Of a stretch of DNA of 34,551 bases, positions 1 through 12,394 are shown piece by piece; position 1 is the stretch's first letter, and each line of letters begins with the position of its first letter. A program made the position numbers and the translations under genes. This stretch comes from a virus (lineage: Duplodnaviria > Heunggongvirae > Uroviricota > Caudoviricetes). The stretch covers positions 1-34,551 of the IMG/VR virus record IMGVR_UViG_2778261031_000007; one strand, 5' to 3'. The notes under the pieces are model-generated. The model made no database searches and was not told where the DNA came from. It was given only the letters and a program-made list of their open reading frames with translations.

Positions 1-1023
1 TTATGTGGATGAAATGTGGATACCTCCTTTTAACGGATTAAGTGAAATTGCATCCTGGAGGAAATCAGGAGCGAGGTGCGCATAGGTCATAGTTTGCTGG
101 ATCGTGGCGTGCCCCATAATTCGCTGGAGCGTAAGTATATTTCCTCCATTAATCATAAAGTGAGCTGCAAAGGTATGGCGTAGAACATGTACAGCCTGCC
201 CTTTCGGTAGGTCAGGCTTAACACTGCGAAGCACCTTGCGATATTCCTCATAATTGACGTCAAACAAAAGGCCGGATTTCTTTGTTTTGATCTCACTAAC
301 AACTTCATCAGAGACAGGAATAATTCGAACTTTTCCGTTTTTAGTTTTGTTAAACGTCACGCGGTTATTGATGATGTGTTCCGCGCGCAGATTTTTCGCT
401 TCTCCCCATCTCGCACCAGTACTGAGACAAAGTAGCGTAATCCGCCGGGCATCACCGCTTACTGCATCCAGTAATTTGGCGATTTCTTCCGTGGTGAGAT
501 ACGTCATTTCGGGTGATTTTCGTTTCAAAGAGGGGAGGGCGCGGAGCGGATTTTCTCCGTGAAATTCCCCGGCATTTGCCAGGAGTGTAAACATTCCTCC
601 GAGATCCGACTCATCACGCCGAACAGTAGACTCTTTTACTCCCAAGGATAAACGGGAGCTTCGATAAGCGGCCATGAAACGAGCATTAATCTGGCTAACC
701 CTTGGATCATTCATTTCTTTGATGATTTTTTTCAACCTGGTTAGAACGCCGTTAGCATATGGCTTATTGCGTCCACCCAATTCCCACCATAACGGAAGCA
801 GATCTGAGAGATGACGTTGCTCTGTTGGCTTTTCAAGCCATTCCTTATCGTGCATGTGGCTGAGAACATAACGCTCAAAGGCCACTGCATCTGCCTTTTT
901 CTTAAAAATCCGCTGAATCCGACGTCCACTTCGGCCACGCGGTCTAACATCCACTTTATACCGTCCACCATCGAGCGCTTTAATTGCCATTGGCAAGCCC
1001 TCCGGTGAAACGAGGAAAGACAT
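1..1023 (-). CDS. int: Tyrosine integrase (P2 Int-like)
   Basis: 340-aa ORF; C-terminal catalytic motifs HVLRHTFA and TMTYAHLAPD (Tyr nucleophile); sits downstream of repressor as in P2. Confidence 0.9.
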   Translation of the reverse strand: MSFLVSPEGLPMAIKALDGGRYKVDVRPRGRSGRRIQRIFKKKADAVAFERYVLSHMHDKEWLEKPTEQRHLSDLLPLWWELGGRNKPYANGVLTRLKKIIKEMNDPRVSQINARFMAAYRSSRLSLGVKESTVRRDESDLGGMFTLLANAGEFHGENPLRALPSLKRKSPEMTYLTTEEIAKLLDAVSGDARRITLLCLSTGARWGEAKNLRAEHIINNRVTFNKTKNGKVRIIPVSDEVVSEIKTKKSGLLFDVNYEEYRKVLRSVKPDLPKGQAVHVLRHTFAAHFMINGGNILTLQRIMGHATIQQTMTYAHLAPDFLQDAISLNPLKGGIHISST

Positions 1024-1056: not shown

Positions 1057-1359
1057 TTAACCAATTTTCCTTTCGGATGGGGGTAAGTCCGTTGGCTCTT
1101 GCCCATAGTGTGCGAGAGCCGGAGCTATCTGCCCGGATTCAGGCGCAATTTTTCCAGTCATAAACCACAACGCATATTTCTCAAATCTGGGGTTGTTTAG
1201 TATTTGCTCAATTACTTCAGCATTAGGGATAGTTTTACCGCTTTCATATCTCCACAGAGCATCACGGTTTAAACCAAGCATTTTTGCTGTATCCGGGAGG
1301 CTAGTAAGTCTCTCGCTTTCACGCATGATTTTTATGCGCTCTCCAATAGTCATACGCAT
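1057..1359 (-). CDS. C: Immunity repressor C (HTH)
   Basis: About 100 aa from ATG at 1359 (GGAG 8 nt upstream); C-terminal WFMTGKIAPESGQIAPALAHYGQ closely matches recalled P2 C; track ORF starts at an upstream TTG (1374). Confidence 0.8.
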   Translation of the reverse strand: MRMTIGERIKIMRESERLTSLPDTAKMLGLNRDALWRYESGKTIPNAEVIEQILNNPRFEKYALWFMTGKIAPESGQIAPALAHYGQEPTDLPPSERKIG

Positions 1360-4709: not shown

Positions 4710-5099
4710 ATGATTGACGCTCATGACTTCACAAGATGGGTGCGCACACAGGACACCCGTCTGGCTCCCGTTCTTCAGGGATTATTTGATCTCTACATCC
4801 GTGGTCGTGACAACAGAGCACGCACCACAAAACCGGAGAATGCAGACACCCTTTATTTCACAGTAGACGACTGCTACCGCGTGGACTTCACACCACACGG
4901 GCTGGCGTTGCACTGCCTGACACCACACGGAGAATCACTGCTGGCGTATTACGACTCCCCGGCCTCCGTATTTGCGGCAATGCTGGCGCATCGCACTGCT
5001 GGCGGGTGTGCCTCGCTGAGTGAATACACCGCTGAATTTAACCGCCTTTCTGCCCTCTTCTCGCAGGAGTGGCAGCGCGTGACGGGATACCAGCCATGA
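4710..5099 (+). CDS. Hypothetical protein (129 aa)
   Basis: ATG 4710; stop overlaps start of A (ATGA at 5096-5099). Confidence 0.5.
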   Translation: MIDAHDFTRWVRTQDTRLAPVLQGLFDLYIRGRDNRARTTKPENADTLYFTVDDCYRVDFTPHGLALHCLTPHGESLLAYYDSPASVFAAMLAHRTAGGCASLSEYTAEFNRLSALFSQEWQRVTGYQP

Positions 5100-7906
5100 A
5101 TGAGTTTGCATGGAGCTGGAATGAACCACGGCCAGCCATTGATCCGGCCAGATTTACGGAGCACAGGCAGGAAACTGAAACCGACCTGCAACGCGCCATC
5201 CGTTACTACCTTGAGGCAGACAAAAAGGCTCTGGAAGAACAGGAAGCGAAGGAGGAAGCCTTTTTCGCACAATCCACCGTGGGTAAAAAACTCATGGCAT
5301 CCCTTGAGGAAGCCGGACAGCGTGAAAAGCTGGCACAAAGCATCATCAGCAAGCGTCAGGCAACAGAACAAGACCCGGTGGCCCGTGCTTTTGCCACACT
5401 GAAGGTGCTTCCCGTTTATCTGCGTGAACCTCTGAGCCGCCACCTCTCTTTCCTGCGCAAAAAACAGGAAGCCGATCGCCAGAAAGGCAAAAAGAGCTGG
5501 CAGGCTGAACGCTACGCGCGCGGAACCCTGCGCAAAATATTCGAACGTCTGGACCGCACCGATCACCGCTGGCTGACACCGGGTTATCGCTCCCTTGCCG
5601 GACGCGAACGCCTGGACGATTTGCTTTACCTGCCGCAGCTCAACAAACACCAGATACAGACGCTGGCCACCATGACGGCGGCGATGTTCAGCAGCACCTT
5701 CGAAAAACTCTGCGATGGCTTTGGCGCGACTGATGGCGAACTGACCATGGATGTAACGCTGAAGGCGTATCAGATGCTGGCCCGCATGGCGTTACACCTG
5801 CACGCCATGCCTCCACATTATGACGCACTGACAACAGACAAAGACCGGAGGAACGAACCGGACACGGAGCTGCTGCCGGGCGCAATCCTTCGCCTGACCT
5901 GTGCAGAATGGTGGAAACGCAAACTGTGGCTGTTACGTTGCGAGTGGAGAGAAGAACAACTCCGCGCCGCCTGTCTGGTTTCCAGAAAAACATCGCCCTA
6001 TCTGAGCCAGGACGCGTTAAGCGAGTTTCGCGCACAGCGCGAGAAAACACGCGATTTCCTGAAAAGTTTCATGCTGGAAAATGAAGACGGGTTCACGATT
6101 GATCTCGAGACGGTGTATTACGCGGGAGTAAGTAACCCGGTTCACCGTAAGGCAGAAATGATGGCCACCATGAAGGGGCTGGAACTTCTGGCCGAAGCCC
6201 GTGGCGACAAAGCGGTGTTTCTGACTGTCACCTGCCCGTCAAAATACCACGCCACAACAGAGAACGGTCATCCGAATCCCAAATGGAACGGGGCCACCAT
6301 GCGCGACTCCAGCGATTATCTGGTTAACACGTTTTTTGCGGCGGTCCGCAAAAAACTGAACCGCGACGGCCTGCGCTGGTATGGCATCCGCACGGTGGAG
6401 CCTCACCATGACGGCACCGTGCACTGGCATATGATGGTCTTTGCTCATCCGGAAGAAATCGACAGCATCGTGGCCATCACCCGCGATATTGCCATTCAGG
6501 AAGACCGCCACGAGCTGGGCAATGATATTACTCCGCGCTTTAAGGTGGAGTATGTCGACGGCTCCAAAGGCACACCAACCAGCTATATCGCGACCTACAT
6601 CGGAAAAAACCTGGACAGCCGCGCCGTGGATGGCATCGACCCGAAAACGGGCAAGCCACGCGTTGACCACGAAACCGGAAAATCAATGGCCGAGAGTGTG
6701 GAACGCGCCATCGGCTGGGCGCGCCTTCACCGGGTCCGCCAGTTCCAGTTCTTTGGCATCCCCTCCCGTCAGGTATGGCGTGAACTCCGCCGCCTTGCCA
6801 GCCAGATGGCACGCAACCCGGAAGGCCCGCAACGGCTGAAGGATGATGCAATGGATGCGGTACTCGCTGCCGCTGATGCCGGGTGTTTTGCCACCTACAT
6901 TGAGAAACAGGGCGGCGTACTTGTTCCACGCAAAGACTACCTGATTCGCACCGCCTACGACCTCGCAGATGAGCTGAACGATTACGGCGAACAGAGCGTA
7001 CAGATTTACGGGATCTGGTCACCACTCATCGGGGAATCCTCCCGTGTGTGCACGCACCCGGATAACTGGAAGCTGGTAAGACGTAAACCGGAAGCGGAAG
7101 ACAGCACCCGCGAAAATGGTTTTGACCTTCAGGGCGGCCCTGCCGCCCCTTGGACTCGTGGCAATAACTGTCCCCGTGTACAGGAAACGGACAACAACGG
7201 GACAGAACAGCCGGAAGAACGGCCAGCACCGTGGCCGCAGCTCCCTGACGGCGTTGAAGTGAACGAATGGATGCGCTCACTGAAACGGCACGAACGCCGG
7301 GCGCTGATGCGTTCGCTTCGTGACAAACAGGCAAAAAACAGCAGTGATGAAATGCAGAGCTGGACACAGAGCCGCAAACAGCAGCGGCCTTTGCCTGATA
7401 ACCACGAATTACTCGCTAGAGAATGGCGGGAGTCTGCTGAATCTCTCGGCCTGCATATCGGTGAACAACAAATGCAGCACCTGTTACGGGGCGGCAGTCT
7501 GTACGTTGACGGCAGCATCATTGCACCGCAGGGATTTGAAATTGTACGCAAACCGGATACCCGCCCGGACAGCCGAATCACGCAGCTCTGGCAGCGCCTG
7601 AGCCGTAATCACGGTGTAAGCAGCACGGAGATCCGCCATAACCCGGTCGCCAGCTATCTGGCACAGCTGGGGGCATCAGACCCTGAAGCGGCCACACGCC
7701 TGGCATCCACACTTCAGCAGGACCAGAACACCATGAAAACACCCGTTACCGTGCTTTCTGACATGCTGCGCGCCATCCGCGACGCAGAGCACGCACAGAG
7801 AATCAGTGAAACCACTGAACGTGCCCGCCGCAAAGCAGACCTGCTGCGGGGTGGCCTGACCAGTGGAAACAAAAACAGACAGAAACGGGATTCACAAATC
7901 CCGTAA
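5096..7906 (+). CDS. A: Replication initiator A (rolling-circle HUH endonuclease, P2 gpA-like)
   Basis: VEPHHDGTVHWHMMVF HUH motif and N-terminal AWSWNEPR match recalled P2 gpA; start set at ATG 5096 (coupled to upstream gene), alternative GTG at 5069. Confidence 0.9.
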   Translation: MNEFAWSWNEPRPAIDPARFTEHRQETETDLQRAIRYYLEADKKALEEQEAKEEAFFAQSTVGKKLMASLEEAGQREKLAQSIISKRQATEQDPVARAFATLKVLPVYLREPLSRHLSFLRKKQEADRQKGKKSWQAERYARGTLRKIFERLDRTDHRWLTPGYRSLAGRERLDDLLYLPQLNKHQIQTLATMTAAMFSSTFEKLCDGFGATDGELTMDVTLKAYQMLARMALHLHAMPPHYDALTTDKDRRNEPDTELLPGAILRLTCAEWWKRKLWLLRCEWREEQLRAACLVSRKTSPYLSQDALSEFRAQREKTRDFLKSFMLENEDGFTIDLETVYYAGVSNPVHRKAEMMATMKGLELLAEARGDKAVFLTVTCPSKYHATTENGHPNPKWNGATMRDSSDYLVNTFFAAVRKKLNRDGLRWYGIRTVEPHHDGTVHWHMMVFAHPEEIDSIVAITRDIAIQEDRHELGNDITPRFKVEYVDGSKGTPTSYIATYIGKNLDSRAVDGIDPKTGKPRVDHETGKSMAESVERAIGWARLHRVRQFQFFGIPSRQVWRELRRLASQMARNPEGPQRLKDDAMDAVLAAADAGCFATYIEKQGGVLVPRKDYLIRTAYDLADELNDYGEQSVQIYGIWSPLIGESSRVCTHPDNWKLVRRKPEAEDSTRENGFDLQGGPAAPWTRGNNCPRVQETDNNGTEQPEERPAPWPQLPDGVEVNEWMRSLKRHERRALMRSLRDKQAKNSSDEMQSWTQSRKQQRPLPDNHELLAREWRESAESLGLHIGEQQMQHLLRGGSLYVDGSIIAPQGFEIVRKPDTRPDSRITQLWQRLSRNHGVSSTEIRHNPVASYLAQLGASDPEAATRLASTLQQDQNTMKTPVTVLSDMLRAIRDAEHAQRISETTERARRKADLLRGGLTSGNKNRQKRDSQIP

Positions 7907-8011: not shown

Positions 8012-8971
8012 ATGAAAATTTGTATCGACGACGGCTCCACCAACATCAAGCTGGCATGGACTGAGAACGGCGAACGCCGCAACGCCATCAGCCCGAACAG
8101 CTTCAAGTCGGAATGGTCTGCGCCGTTCGGTGGCACGCATCCCGCGAACTACATGCTTGATGGCGTGCGCTATGGCTTTGATCCGGTCAGCGATCGCTTT
8201 GTCCAGACGACTGACACGCAATACCAGTACAGCGATGTGAATGTAATCGCCATTCATCACGCGCTGGTCAAATCAGGCATCACACCACAGGAAGTGGATG
8301 TGGTTGTCACCCTGCCACTGAGCGAGTATTTCGACACAAACGCACAGCCGGACATGGCCAACATCAACCGCAAAAAAGCGAACGTCATGCGCCCAGTGGA
8401 GTACCAGAACGGCGAAGCATTCACTATCCGTAACGTACGGGTTATGCCTGAATCCATTCCGGCTGGCTTTAAAGCACTGGCTGACATGAGTCCGTTTGAA
8501 TCCCTGCTGATTGTGGATTTAGGCGGAACCACGCTGGATGTGGCAAAGGTTCAGGGACAACTGGCAGGTATCAGCCAGGTGTTTTGCGATCCACACGTAG
8601 GCGTTTCTCTGATGGCCGATGCCGTACTGTCGGTGATGGCCACTAACGGTATGCGCACCAGTCACCACATCGCCAATACCATTATCGAACATCGCCATGA
8701 TGAAGCCTGGCTGCGCCAGCACATCCACAATGACGCGCATTACGCCAGCCTGATGGCGGTTATTCGTGAAAAGGAAGAAACACTGAAACAACGCGTGATC
8801 CGCGCGCTGGCGGGTTTTTCGGGTTACGGGCGGGTGATGGTTGTCGGTGGAGGGGCGGAGATTGTGGCACCCGCTATCCGCGAAGCCTGCGGAGTTAATG
8901 CGACTTTCATCGCGGACGGGGTGCCACAGTTTGCTCTGGTTAATGGGCTGTACGCAATGGACAAGGAGTAA
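8012..8971 (+). CDS. parM: ParM/StbA-type actin-like segregation ATPase
   Basis: 319 aa; IDDGSTNIKL, ISPNSFK, QYSDVNV, VHHAL, VMPESIPAG, DLGGTTLD, GGGAE and LVNGLY motifs collinear with recalled R1 ParM. Confidence 0.85.
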   Translation: MKICIDDGSTNIKLAWTENGERRNAISPNSFKSEWSAPFGGTHPANYMLDGVRYGFDPVSDRFVQTTDTQYQYSDVNVIAIHHALVKSGITPQEVDVVVTLPLSEYFDTNAQPDMANINRKKANVMRPVEYQNGEAFTIRNVRVMPESIPAGFKALADMSPFESLLIVDLGGTTLDVAKVQGQLAGISQVFCDPHVGVSLMADAVLSVMATNGMRTSHHIANTIIEHRHDEAWLRQHIHNDAHYASLMAVIREKEETLKQRVIRALAGFSGYGRVMVVGGGAEIVAPAIREACGVNATFIADGVPQFALVNGLYAMDKE

Positions 8972-8975
8972 ACCA

Positions 8976-9287
8976 ATGACGACTCCAACCAGACGGATAA
9001 GTTTCTATCTGAAGCCCGCCGCCGTCAAGAACGAAGGCGAAGCATGCGCCTGGCTGGACAGCCTTACACCAGAAGCCCGCAAAAGCGGCCAACGCGTAGC
9101 TTTTCTGGCCGGGCTGGCACTTCTGAAAATGAATCCAGCAGAGGCTTACCGACTGGCTGCATGGGCTGACGATGAGGCGTTATCAGTGACACAAACCAGG
9201 ACAGAGCGCCCCTTGTCACAGCCAGTACCAACCGCACAGATAACCAGTCAGATGGCTGGGAATATCCGGGCGTTGTTTCCTGAATAA
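8976..9287 (+). CDS. ParR-like small DNA-binding adaptor (call by position and size)
   Basis: 103 aa starting 5 nt after parM stop with AAGGAG RBS; same size class and arrangement as ParR. Confidence 0.45.
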   Translation: MTTPTRRISFYLKPAAVKNEGEACAWLDSLTPEARKSGQRVAFLAGLALLKMNPAEAYRLAAWADDEALSVTQTRTERPLSQPVPTAQITSQMAGNIRALFPE

Positions 9288-9293
9288 CACAAC

Positions 9294-9315
9294 ATCAGGG
9301 CGAGTTCGCCCTGAT
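9294..9315. terminator. Hairpin between convergent genes (ATCAGGGCGA-GTTC-TCGCCCTGAT)
   Basis: Near-perfect palindrome between parR-like stop and the convergent 198-aa gene stop. Confidence 0.45.
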
Positions 9316-9332
9316 GCACAAAGCATGCTAAA

Positions 9333-9929
9333 TCAGAATTTAGTATGCAATTTATCTACCAATCGCTTAGCCTCATTAAGTAGTTTTTGGTATTCCCTGC
9401 TATCGTTTTCCTGATCTTCATACGCTCGCCGAACACGCCATCGAAGAGCAAGGCATTTTAAGTTCCGGTAAAACCTCGGATTACGCTTGCGGCACTCTTC
9501 CATATAAGGTTCAAAATGGACATCAAGAAAGATTAAGGTAGAACCATAAACACGATATAGATACCGCTCATCATACAAACCGTTATTCACGGCATTAGCA
9601 CAACGCTCCCACTCATTAAAAATGAGTTTTAATGCTTTTGCTCCATCCGTTTGAGAATATTCCTCTTTTCCCCAATCAGCGATCGGAAAGTTATGGCGAT
9701 CCTTATGAATACGTAGCACTTCTGACCACGCATCGACTATGTCCTTGTTACGTTTATATGCAGCCTCGAAATCCAACGAATTTTTTTCGCGCGACGTTTT
9801 TCTTTGATTTCGTATGCTAATCACTGCAATAAGCGCACCCGCAGCTCCTGGATAAAACGTAGGGCTGGATTCCCAAATACTGGAAAAAATTTTTCCTATA
9901 TAACTAAGGGCAGAAAGAACTAGATCCAT
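9333..9929 (-). CDS. Orphan membrane-anchored protein (198 aa), unknown function
   Basis: ORF with one N-terminal hydrophobic helix (PGAAGALIAVISI) and a charged soluble domain; visibly lower G+C than flanking phage genes. Confidence 0.7.
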   Translation of the reverse strand: MDLVLSALSYIGKIFSSIWESSPTFYPGAAGALIAVISIRNQRKTSREKNSLDFEAAYKRNKDIVDAWSEVLRIHKDRHNFPIADWGKEEYSQTDGAKALKLIFNEWERCANAVNNGLYDERYLYRVYGSTLIFLDVHFEPYMEECRKRNPRFYRNLKCLALRWRVRRAYEDQENDSREYQKLLNEAKRLVDKLHTKF

Positions 9930-9942
9930 TGTATTTAACCAT

Positions 9943-9965
9943 AAAAAATGGGAGCCAAAGCCCCC
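9943..9965 (-). terminator. Attenuator-like hairpin plus U-tract immediately upstream of the 198-aa gene
   Basis: Minus strand reads GGGGGCTTTGGCTCCC then ATTTTTTA, ending 14 nt before the ATG at 9929. Confidence 0.35.
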
Positions 9966-9997
9966 ATTCTACTGAAACTACTCTAAAAAAACAGGAG

Positions 9998-10042
9998 TTA
10001 AACGTCCCAGTTTTCTTCGCTATAGATGCGGCGTACGGTCAT
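9998..10042 (-). CDS. Candidate 14-codon leader peptide (MTVRRIYSEENWDV)
   Basis: AGAGGAG RBS 7 nt before ATG; lies directly upstream of the hairpin at 9943-9965. Confidence 0.25.
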   Translation of the reverse strand: MTVRRIYSEENWDV

Positions 10043-10379
10043 AGTTAGTCTCCTCTTTTCAATCATTTAAACATCACTAATTTACTTTTAACATGGAGAT
10101 GGTTTTACAGTTGTCAACCACCTCCCCCAAATCTGTTGGGGTAAGCTATCACGCCTACCATACACATACAATGATGAGGCTATATCGTGTAGTCACACCG
10201 ATAAGGATAAGTTCATCTTCTTCGCTGCCTTAATGTGACCAAATATAGCACATTTGAAGCGATATACATCCTGTAATGATACTGCACAATAGTGCACAAA
10301 TTTGCACAATTTTTTTGAACGACTTTTTGCCCTTCCGGCCCGCGTGGCGGCTGGATCCGTCAGGGATCCGTGCGTGCAC

Positions 10380-10403
10380 AAAAAAACGCGCTTTTTCTGC
10401 GCG
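10380..10403 (-). terminator. Candidate minus-strand intrinsic terminator (CGCGC stem, then U7 on minus strand)
   Basis: Plus strand AAAAAAA-CGCGC-TTTTTCT-GCGCG. Confidence 0.3.
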
Positions 10404-10405
10404 CA

Positions 10406-10424
10406 GGTGACGGGGGAACAGCCC
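10406..10424. other. Candidate cos-like element (GGTGACGGGGGAACAGCCC)
   Basis: About 12 of 18 positions match the recalled P2/186 cohesive end GGCGAGGCGGGGAAAGCA; lies on the expected side of the portal gene. Confidence 0.2.
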
Positions 10425-10808
10425 GCGTTTCAGGGGGTAAATAGCATTCCCTGAACGATGTCGCAGCGACACAACAGAATGGCTGTATCGCTCACGCTGA
10501 GCCTGAAAAAGACGTAAGGTGTTCTGATTTGATGGGATGAAAGGTAAGGCCGTCAAAATCGCACTGAGGCGGCGAGAACATGCAGTCAGCGCGGCGGGAT
10601 TGTGTAAGAGTCTGGCCGTCGATGATAGCGATAAGTCGGAAGACGTCGTGAAATTATCTGATTGATACAGGAGCTGGAGAGTCGGGGCATAAATTTTTTA
10701 TGCCCCGGCGAAGCAGCAGACAAGCGAAGCGCGTCAGTGATGCGGCACCTTGCCGACCACACTTCATAAGTGCAAAATACGAGCAAAGAAATCAATGGAG
10801 GCTGTTCT

Positions 10809-11333
10809 ATGGTCATTAATTACAAGCAGTTACGAGAAAAACGAGATCAGGTAAAGGAGAGTTTTCGCCGCAATGAAGACCTGACCCCGCTTGTACGCAT
10901 TGCCCAGGGAATTGTTGATGCTTATGAAATCTCTCTGGAGCTGCCATCACAGACATGGACGGATAGCGACGGTAATCGCCAGCATTACGTTTCATGCGGA
11001 CTGGAAACGGCTGAAGGGTTTCGCAGAATGCCTTTATCTCAGATTCCTGCCGCTACCCCCAAAGCAAGGGGCGGCAATGATGAGCGAAAACTGATTTTCA
11101 GCATTGAGACAGTGGTTGACGACACACCTGGCGAAGTCGCCTTCGTGCATACTCCTCTTTCGATCGCAATGTATAACGATGAAATACAGGTTCGCGTTAA
11201 TAATAATATCGTGCCACTTAAAGAAGGTAATTCACCATACACCACCGTTTGTGAAGCCATTCAATATTACGTTCTCTCTGAAATTGATAATCTCAAGCCT
11301 GACGGCACCCAGAAAATGGTTCAACTCTGGTAA
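10809..11333 (+). CDS. Orphan protein (174 aa), unknown function
   Basis: GGAGG RBS at 10797-10801 with ATG at 10809 (track ORF starts at upstream GTG 10770); followed by a strong terminator. Confidence 0.65.
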   Translation: MVINYKQLREKRDQVKESFRRNEDLTPLVRIAQGIVDAYEISLELPSQTWTDSDGNRQHYVSCGLETAEGFRRMPLSQIPAATPKARGGNDERKLIFSIETVVDDTPGEVAFVHTPLSIAMYNDEIQVRVNNNIVPLKEGNSPYTTVCEAIQYYVLSEIDNLKPDGTQKMVQLW

Positions 11334-11338
11334 AAAGG

Positions 11339-11364
11339 ACAGCCCCATCACGGGGCTGTTTTTT
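11339..11364. terminator. Bidirectional terminator shared by the 174-aa gene and portal gene
   Basis: CAGCCCC-ATCAC-GGGGCTG then T6; portal stop codon lies in the loop. Confidence 0.6.
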
Positions 11365-12394
11365 CATCAAGAAGAGCATAAGAATTAAAACGGATCACCT
11401 CTTCGCCAAGCCAGTCATTGATGTGCTTCATGGCCTCCATAACGGGCATCAGCTCGTTAATTGCGTAAACCCGCGCGGCCTTTTCCACATCACCAAACGC
11501 ACTTTTTTCACCCGGCATCGCCCCCATCAGTTGCGGCGGAACGCGGTGCGCAGCCAGCACATCATCACGGGATGCCGCCTTAACATTCATGAACTCATCC
11601 TTTGCGGTGATCTGCTGGAACGGCAAAATTTGCACACCTTCTTTGCCCCCGTTGGGCGCATGAATGAGCACGTTTTTAAACGCACCACCACCACGTGCAC
11701 CCTGTAGCGTTTCTTTCAGGGAGTCCATGCTTTCGCGGTTTACCTGCGCTGCACCGATGTAGATGATACACCCGGCGTGGGATCCGTTGTCGTAATACAG
11801 TTTTCTGAACATGTCCGCCGAATGAGACAGGCTGGCCGAGAGTAATGCGCCGAGATATTCCGGCATGCCGTAGATTTCCTGGTTAATGTCAGGATTCATC
11901 AGGTGGCACACTTTGCCAGGGCGAAACTGAAACGCGTCCTTACCATCCTGCACATACCACCATGATTCAAGATCGCTTCCGCGTCGCATGTATTTCGCCA
12001 GGGCGTGCCGTAATTTAAGCGGTTCGCCGAGCATATTGCTTCGAAGCTCAAGGAATGCGTTACCGAACACAAACCAGTCCAGCGCCAGCGCCGAGAAATC
12101 CTGCCGGGAAAGCAGCGGGTGCGGAATATAGCAACCGAGCAATACATTGCGCTTAAAGTAAAGCGCAGACTGATGCCAGGACGTTTGCCGGGCCGCTCTT
12201 GCCAGACCGTACCAGTCCACCGGGGTTTCATACCACCGCCCGTTATCAGCACAGTACATATTGTCCAGCAGGTCATGCCCGGTCAGGCGATAAGGACCAT
12301 CAAATGTGAATGCACTGAGCGATGATTCTTTCCTGAGCGCATCAGCGAGATCAATGCGTGAACTCATGCGCACTTTTTTATTTTTTCTGCTCAT
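11348..12394 (-). CDS. Q: Portal protein (gpQ)
   Basis: 348 aa; SAFTFDGPYRLTGHDLLDNMYCADNGRWYETPVDWYGLA matches recalled P2 gpQ. Confidence 0.95.
   Translation of the reverse strand: MSRKNKKVRMSSRIDLADALRKESSLSAFTFDGPYRLTGHDLLDNMYCADNGRWYETPVDWYGLARAARQTSWHQSALYFKRNVLLGCYIPHPLLSRQDFSALALDWFVFGNAFLELRSNMLGEPLKLRHALAKYMRRGSDLESWWYVQDGKDAFQFRPGKVCHLMNPDINQEIYGMPEYLGALLSASLSHSADMFRKLYYDNGSHAGCIIYIGAAQVNRESMDSLKETLQGARGGGAFKNVLIHAPNGGKEGVQILPFQQITAKDEFMNVKAASRDDVLAAHRVPPQLMGAMPGEKSAFGDVEKAARVYAINELMPVMEAMKHINDWLGEEVIRFNSYALLDEKTAP

Follow-up and report, generated by a model that had tools for sequence, protein, structure and literature searches.

The window, by which we mean the whole 34,551-nucleotide stretch of DNA that was analyzed, is a P2/P88-like (Xuanwuvirus-type) prophage, and the features discussed here are collected in Table 1. 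On its minus strand a micro-ORF led by a Shine-Dalgarno (SD) sequence and an intrinsic terminator lie upstream of a 198-aa gene of the DUF4760 family. The RefSeq start of the DUF4760 gene is the same ATG as that used here, and the micro-ORF is unannotated in RefSeq. An earlier, sequence-only reading of this DNA had described a strong ribosome binding site (AGAGGAG) with a 7-nt spacer and a 14-codon ORF, followed by a GC hairpin and a U-tract; both pairs of elements are present as first described, the second as a typical intrinsic terminator. The core of this hairpin, GGGGGC (9965-9960) and GCTCCC (9955-9950) around a TTTG loop, is lengthened by A-U and G-U pairs to the full stem (dG -14.8 kcal/mol). 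The 13 nt between the T-tract and the DUF4760 ATG (ATGGTTAAATACA) contain no SD sequence, in agreement with the earlier remark that the gene starts without one; the close spacing also held, at 13 nt rather than the 14 nt first counted. Within the micro-ORF, the motif EENW is encoded at 10018-10007.

Table 1. Coordinates of the features at the locus; positions refer to the window except in the last two lines, which refer to the named loci.
Feature	Position	Strand	Details
Replication endonuclease gpA	5069-7906	plus	
ParM	8012-8971	plus	
StbB-like gene	8841-9287	plus	
Hairpin 3' of DUF4760	9292-9317	minus	between convergent genes
DUF4760 gene, 198 aa	9333-9929	minus	ATG 9929-9927; Pfam PF15956, E = 1.2e-24
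Intrinsic terminator	9943-9970	minus	11-pair hairpin (9970-9945) and T6 tract (9948-9943)
Possible hairpin 1	9985-10017	minus	EE-N-W codons (AAGAAAAC-U-GGGA) with UCCU-GUUUUUUU; minimum-free-energy fold
Micro-ORF	10042-9998	minus	14 sense codons and TAA; ATG 10042-10040, TAA 10000-9998; peptide MTVRRIYSEENWDV
Shine-Dalgarno AGAGGAG of micro-ORF	10056-10050	minus	followed by 7-nt spacer (10049-10043)
Candidate lineage-specific promoter (the TTGACA first noted)	10117-10090	minus	below the threshold of the tool
Candidate family-conserved sigma-70 promoter	10171-10143	minus	
Terminator-like hairpin upstream of cassette	10404-10386	minus	GCGCGCAGAAAAAGCGCGT and T7; conserved backbone
187-aa ORF	10770-11333	plus	PHROG 5091, function unknown; hypothetical in RefSeq
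Portal	12394-11348	minus	
Terminase	14145-12394	minus	
Tandem motif duplication, L057 (Halomonas)	~1199-1264		MSHYVYFDEDWGVYDEDWGVY
Tandem motif duplication, L082	~474-536		MKTNEQEFGYSVGNEQDFGY

With respect to genomic context, megablast searches divided the region in two. The segment from 10800 to ~10281 is backbone that P88-like phages share with over 1,100 E. coli genomes. The segment from ~10280 to ~9300 is cargo, and just 15 complete E. coli genomes have all of it. The slot is variable; on one side of it is the cos/portal region and on the other are the replication/partition genes of the P2/P88-like prophage. Citrobacter phage Shae_phiSM carries, at an identical junction, a DUF4760 cassette of 24% identity that has a micro-ORF of its own; the Vibrio relatives lie in P2-like phages, between the terminase/portal genes and gpA, and the Halomonas relative adjoins a portal gene. 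DUF4760 genes were located on phage or mobile DNA wherever context was available, often in this P2 slot, which is known to carry defence genes. The cassette at ~10280-9290 may be read as compact phage cargo, a view that shares the probability given below for the two-part cassette as a whole. Its 3' end is likely the hairpin between the convergent genes, and at its other side the hairpin in the backbone would, as judged from its sequence, block transcription from the portal side before it reached the cargo. The hairpin ahead of DUF4760 was also considered as the terminator of the phage late operon and rejected, because the backbone has its own at 10404-10386 and the hairpin in question travels with the cassette.

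Repeats of TTGTGCA with a 10-bp period (10279-10312, 3.2 tandem copies, with one more ~70 nt away at 10375-10385) are situated exactly at the junction of the P88-like backbone and the variable cargo, and the same repeats occur at the Shae_phiSM junction; possible roles are an array of binding sites for a packaging or partition protein, or a landmark at which recombination exchanges cargo. The 187-aa ORF, situated between the portal gene and the cos-side backbone, is encoded on the other strand from the late genes. A plasmid partition pair (ParM and the StbB-like gene, 8012-9287) adjoins the replication gene in this P2-like prophage, which suggests that the prophage could be maintained as a phage-plasmid.

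Upstream of the micro-ORF, the only conserved blocks in an alignment of 13 lineages were the columns TTGT and TGnTAnnTT, 17 nt apart. In the window these correspond to a candidate sigma-70 promoter made up of a -35 element TTGTAT (10171-10166), a 17-nt spacer that ends in an extended -10 TG (10151-10150) and a -10 element TAGCTT (10148-10143), from which transcription is predicted to start near 10136. A homologous element (TTGTGG, 17 nt, TATAAA) was observed in the REEDW group of lineages. This family-wide promoter differs from the TTGACA hexamer singled out by the sequence-only reading. The hexamer is present, at 10117-10112 and thus one position off the earlier coordinates, and it is plausibly a lineage-specific -35 element. 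No matching -10 had been reported for it; a weak one, CATGTT (10095-10090), follows after a 16-nt spacer. At the same place, the two closest lineages (L008 and L009) have TTGAAA or TTGATT, 17 nt and TATGTT, and the element is missing from the other lineages. A third promoter-like element, the extended -10 TGcTATATT, was noted on the minus strand at 10250-10242, ~70 nt upstream of the conserved promoter, and TGnTATAnT boxes were seen in at least seven other lineages (L010, L013-L016, L034 and L036). A separate promoter for DUF4760 giving a leaderless mRNA, based on the TATGGT after the T-tract, was considered and discarded, this hexamer having no -35 or extended -10 and not being conserved.

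DUF4760 loci were gathered from genomes, viral contigs, metagenomes and phage records, and the DNA upstream of each was read. The resulting 44 distinct lineages, a first set of 34 and ten remote ones, spanned 100% to ~21% protein identity and included Enterobacterales, Vibrio, Aeromonas, Halomonas, Colwellia, Pseudoalteromonas, Pseudomonas phages and metagenomes, the loci being mostly in P2-like phages. A micro-ORF of 9-21 codons led by an SD sequence lay directly upstream of DUF4760 in every lineage (44/44), and throughout the first set (34/34) there was an in-frame ATG with an SD 5-15 nt before it. The short ORF is almost certainly translated, since SD, ATG and reading frame are kept in 44/44 lineages and, in both Glu codons, positions 1 and 2 are fixed and position 3 varies. 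The encoded peptides share an acidic-aromatic motif, which is EE[ND]W[GD] in close relatives (MTVRRIYSEENWDV, MLKRHIFNEENWDV, MNKFVIVFNEENWGF, MRKIYREEDWGVFISK and MKTFREEDWGLS). Peptides from Vibrio, Aeromonas and marine lineages included MKTVYREEDWF (V. cholerae), MYREENEGWF (Aeromonas) and MKQFKKILNEELWD (Colwellia). In the remote group, defined by 21-24% protein identity or by profile matches only, the motif takes forms such as DDYEGF, DEFDGF or NDFGF, as in MKKVFDEFDGF (Citrobacter phage Shae_phiSM), MYRDDYEGF and MIQQNDFGF; other peptides of this group were ...VVVREEYEGI (Pseudomonas phage), MIFIRNEDYEGF and MKCEEYWPIGQ.

Codon usage within the motif was compared over 30 distinct cores aligned in the EE-x-W register. 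In both Glu codons the first two positions were invariant; the third position of the second codon was A in 13 cores and G in 17, and the TGG codon was invariant. In remote lineages W is replaced by F or Y with the acidic, Gly and hydrophobic context kept, which argues for selection on the peptide and not on the RNA. Near-identical E. coli copies change non-synonymously in the N-terminal half (I to T, R to C) and EENWDV is fixed among them; over the family, conservation is confined to the C-terminal 6-7 residues, variation is tolerated at the N-terminus, and the distance from W to the stop codon ranges from 1 to 6 codons. These substitution patterns indicate that selection on the micro-ORF is exerted at the amino-acid level. 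The motif has also been tandemly duplicated twice, independently, in the Halomonas lineage L057 (DEDWGVY twice) and in L082 (NEQEFGY...NEQDFGY). When viral contigs were scanned with the pattern YREEDWG, every match either lay in front of a DUF4760 gene or was a chance hit within a long ORF. The ORF, the hairpin and the gene that follows them move as a single unit.

A hairpin followed by a T-run was present in 34/34 lineages of the first set, with dG from -9.7 to -20.2 kcal/mol (median -17.1), and only 1.2% of shuffled sequences reached -9.7. Six of the ten remote lineages had clear terminators, one (L080) a moderate and one (L076) a weak terminator, and two (L078 and L081) had none, giving a clear hairpin and T-tract in 40/44 lineages. 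The stems comprise at least 8 unrelated sequences, and in a 13-sequence alignment the terminator helix was 98.6% paired with 6 of its 11 pairs changing on both sides. The gap from the micro-ORF stop codon to the hairpin was 16-35 nt across lineages (28 nt in the window), and that from the hairpin to the DUF4760 start 7-35 nt. Both lineages that lack the terminator keep the micro-ORF (MRSETDRVGF in L078, ~525-600; MIFIRNEDYEGF in L081, 560-603, where 2 nt separate its stop codon from the GTG called as the DUF4760 start), which makes the peptide the more conserved element. The peptide is indeed the most conserved element of the cassette, in 44/44 lineages as compared with 40/44 for a clear terminator.

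The sequence-only reading had taken the arrangement for a transcription-attenuation or translation-coupled leader. Translational coupling is excluded in the window by the 68 nt and the stable hairpin that separate the micro-ORF stop codon from the DUF4760 ATG, and by the different reading frames. Ribosomal bypass in the style of T4 gene 60, or a read-through fusion, was likewise rejected because the take-off and landing codons are unconserved, the frames differ and DUF4760 also has a conserved ATG of its own. Direct occlusion of the hairpin by the ribosome, or coupling of the pyrE/pyrBI type, was dismissed since a stop codon 16-35 nt upstream does not allow the ribosome to cover the hairpin. 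As for attenuation, the translated ORF and the intrinsic terminator before the gene stand, and the ribosome-controlled switch does not. The folding analyses bear on this last point. In hairpin 1 the pyrimidine-rich segment after the stop codon pairs with the EE-N-W codons and the stop codon lies in the loop; the duplex has z = -2.1 in the window and a mean of -1.14 over 30 lineages, with 63.5% of cells paired and no pair changing on both sides, and these values lend weak to moderate support to the formation of such a hairpin.

Classical attenuation of the trp/his type, in which the position of the ribosome selects an antiterminator or the terminator, can be drawn in the window. The post-stop sequence CUCCUGUUUU pairs with the EE-N-W codons at -9.8 kcal/mol and alternatively with the 5' arm of the terminator, AGAAUGGGGG, at -9.9 kcal/mol (z = -2.3), and a 1:2, 2:3, 3:4 scheme (-9.8, -9.9 and -14.8 kcal/mol) is available there, but it is unconserved in the family. 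No conserved antiterminator was found: the 2:3 pairing had a mean z of -0.38 relative to shuffles, was no stronger within a locus (-6.15 kcal/mol) than between foreign loci (-6.3 kcal/mol; Wilcoxon p = 0.6-0.9), and was -3 kcal/mol or weaker in about ten lineages. Nor did the micro-ORF contain a cluster of regulatory codons; there is a single Trp codon, and E, E and W are the residues that never vary. A nascent-RNA test was also applied, in which the ribosome footprint was masked, the transcript was folded as far as the terminator loop and the probability that the 5' arm is paired was read out. The positive control, the E. coli trp leader, gave 0.07, 0.77 and 0.07 for naked RNA, a ribosome stalled at Trp and a ribosome at the stop codon, and the window gave 0.60, 0.60 and 0.60, with no ribosome-dependent change; the family had no consistent pattern. 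The terminator itself formed with an equilibrium probability of 0.96-1.00 under every mask and in every lineage; real attenuators are kinetic, and the equilibrium test is for that reason not decisive alone. An Rfam scan of 8800-11500 returned two hits only, at E ~0.9 and far below gathering scores. A trp-like switch is absent, and we consider classical attenuation very improbable as an account of this locus.

The uniformly high probability of the terminator would also agree with a different proposal, namely that the short terminated transcript is itself the real product (a dual-function small RNA or tiny gene) or that the hairpin only insulates the cargo. A hairpin with a U-tract at the 3' end is a standard module of small RNAs and of Hfq binding. 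Such a transcript or insulator would not call for the exclusive and very deep linkage to DUF4760, and insulation is already at hand in the backbone terminator (10404-10386) upstream of the cassette. The DUF4760 start, 7-35 nt past the hairpin, moreover leaves no room for a promoter, and a convincing -35 element was not found. On balance this proposal seems to us improbable.

The DUF4760 protein consists of a membrane helix at the N-terminus and, after it, an all-helical domain; an AlphaFold2 model built from a 30-sequence alignment was all-helical with a mean pLDDT of 88.5. A Foldseek search of this model against the PDB gave no match at E below 3, the PADLOC 2.0 defence HMMs gave none at E <= 0.01, and NCBIfam gave none for the 198-aa protein, whose only PHROG (2284) is of unknown function. 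A resemblance of DUF4760 to EP is taken as a lead only. The family comprises 2,435 clusters at 50% identity (E <= 0.001). Among the 15 E. coli copies, two independent IS insertions disrupt the gene. In one (L072, E. coli EC556/571/581, three pig isolates presumed to be clonal) IS1B lies in DUF4760 codons 5-8, and in the other (L071, E. coli GPEC548, a chicken isolate) IS5 lies in the last few codons; the micro-ORF and the terminator are intact in both loci. The two insertions hint that DUF4760 carries a fitness cost.

The reading we favour, at a probability of roughly 0.45, is that of a two-part phage cargo cassette in which a surplus of peptide is produced and transcription of DUF4760 is held down by a terminator that is largely constitutive. 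[quoted passage not shown] A constitutive promoter would yield a short transcript, from which the strongly translated micro-ORF would give a 14-residue peptide whose working part is presumably the C-terminal acidic-aromatic motif (hydrophobic-x-E-E-N/D-W-D/G-hydrophobic). Most transcripts would stop at the intrinsic terminator, 28 nt past the stop codon, and the DUF4760 gene, which has no SD sequence, would be carried on read-through transcripts only, so that much peptide and very little membrane protein would be made. The peptide would then be the product proper, a labile partner, inhibitor or sentinel of DUF4760 and not a sensor of ribosome position, and the terminator a valve of fixed setting that determines the ratio, in the manner of antitoxin-terminator-toxin loci. 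We infer a trans-acting peptide and, in DUF4760, a toxic, defence or otherwise costly effector; the support for both is only indirect and comes from the variable cargo slot beside the portal gene, with another DUF4760 cassette at the Shae_phiSM junction and the Vibrio relatives in P2-like phages, and from the two IS insertions. The hairpin over the 3' end of the ORF, which has some support (mean z = -1.14), is not needed by a trans-acting peptide.

A more specific form of the two-part cassette, which we put forward tentatively and hold to be rather unlikely, makes the peptide a labile antidote or sentinel of the membrane-anchored DUF4760 protein, in other words a terminator-metered peptide-antitoxin module of abortive infection. 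Phage takeover would halt the continuous synthesis of the peptide and DUF4760 would be released. Counting against the two-part cassette in either form, the peptide is, at 9-21 residues, at the lower limit for known trans-acting bacterial peptides, and no peptide antitoxin of so small a size is known to us.

Conservation of the peptide is equally to be expected of a cis-acting arrest peptide. In such a leader the nascent acidic-aromatic motif is predicted to stall the ribosome and thereby raise DUF4760 expression, with a trigger that could be intrinsic, a small molecule or a change in the state of translation during infection, and with a link to expression that is not visible in the sequence, for example RNA polymerase kinetics, mRNA stabilisation or Rho. 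Conserved leader peptide sequence is a hallmark of arrest leaders, and TnaC, SecM and MifM depend on Trp and/or acidic clusters. The C-terminal 6-7 conserved residues behind a variable N-terminus, the 9-21 codons with a strong SD that are typical of leader peptides, the terminator between ORF and gene in 40/44 lineages and the possible pause-type hairpin over the 3' end of the ORF all agree with an arrest leader, and the motif is conserved more deeply than DUF4760, which fits a universal partner such as the ribosome. Against this, there is no element coupling a stall to the terminator, the stop codon being 16-35 nt before the hairpin with no antiterminator, and the DUF4760 start lies outside the hairpin. 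The distance from W to the stop codon is also variable (1 to 6 codons), and retention of the peptide in the two terminator-less lineages (L078 and L081) is left unexplained. We judge an arrest-peptide leader to be unlikely, if the main rival of the two-part cassette.

When compared with the attenuation leaders trpL, hisL, pheL and leuL, the locus shares a leader of 10-20 codons, a strong SD and a terminator before the gene, and in some lineages also a hairpin across the 3' end of the ORF; it differs from them in having no conserved antiterminator and no run of regulatory codons and in that the peptide sequence itself is conserved. A conserved short upstream peptide in which Trp and acidic residues are critical is common to TnaC, SpeFL, SecM, MifM and the Erm/Cat leaders, and is shared here. 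Known arrest leaders act via a masked Rho site or via a hairpin that sequesters the SD until the stalled ribosome opens it, and this locus has neither geometry. Were the peptide shown to arrest translation, its motif would be a new kind of ribosome sensor of unusually small size and wide distribution.

The micro-ORF with its usual terminator gives the large and uncharacterised DUF4760 family a testable regulatory or partner logic. For annotators of DUF4760 genes the unannotated ORF of 9-21 codons offers a signature, and as the cassette is only ~1 kb, simple genetics can separate the antidote from the arrest-peptide reading. A trans-acting antidote, if true, would represent an antitoxin of a new chemical class within a type III layout, and the module would then occur widely in cargo hotspots of P2-like phages, given the ~2,400 clusters of the DUF4760 family at 50% identity.

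The layout that defines type III toxin-antitoxin loci is a promoter, a small upstream element, a terminator and a toxin gene with gaps of 1-50 bp, the terminator setting the antitoxin-to-toxin ratio (PMC3401426). These toxin-antitoxin and abortive-infection loci (toxIN, cptIN, tenpIN) have the same order of elements as the cassette described here, and like it have gaps of tens of bases and are carried on mobile elements. In contrast, their upstream element is an array of tandem RNA repeats, where the cassette has a translated micro-ORF; Tandem Repeats Finder (TRF) found no tandem repeat array in 9940-10180, the only repeat being the 10-bp one at 10279-10310, outside the leader. Their toxin is an endoribonuclease of the ToxN/AbiQ type, and here the gene product is a membrane-anchored, all-helical DUF4760 protein in which Pfam recognized DUF4760 only, neither Pfam nor the model identifying it as a ToxN/CptN/TenpN endoribonuclease. 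In the searchable literature there was no functional mention of DUF4760 and none of six peptide strings, and no micro-ORF/terminator/DUF4760 module was found in Rfam or PADLOC. The layout is thus of a known kind, either leader-terminator-gene or antitoxin-terminator-toxin, and what appears to be undescribed is the deeply conserved acidic-aromatic micro-peptide that is tied to DUF4760.
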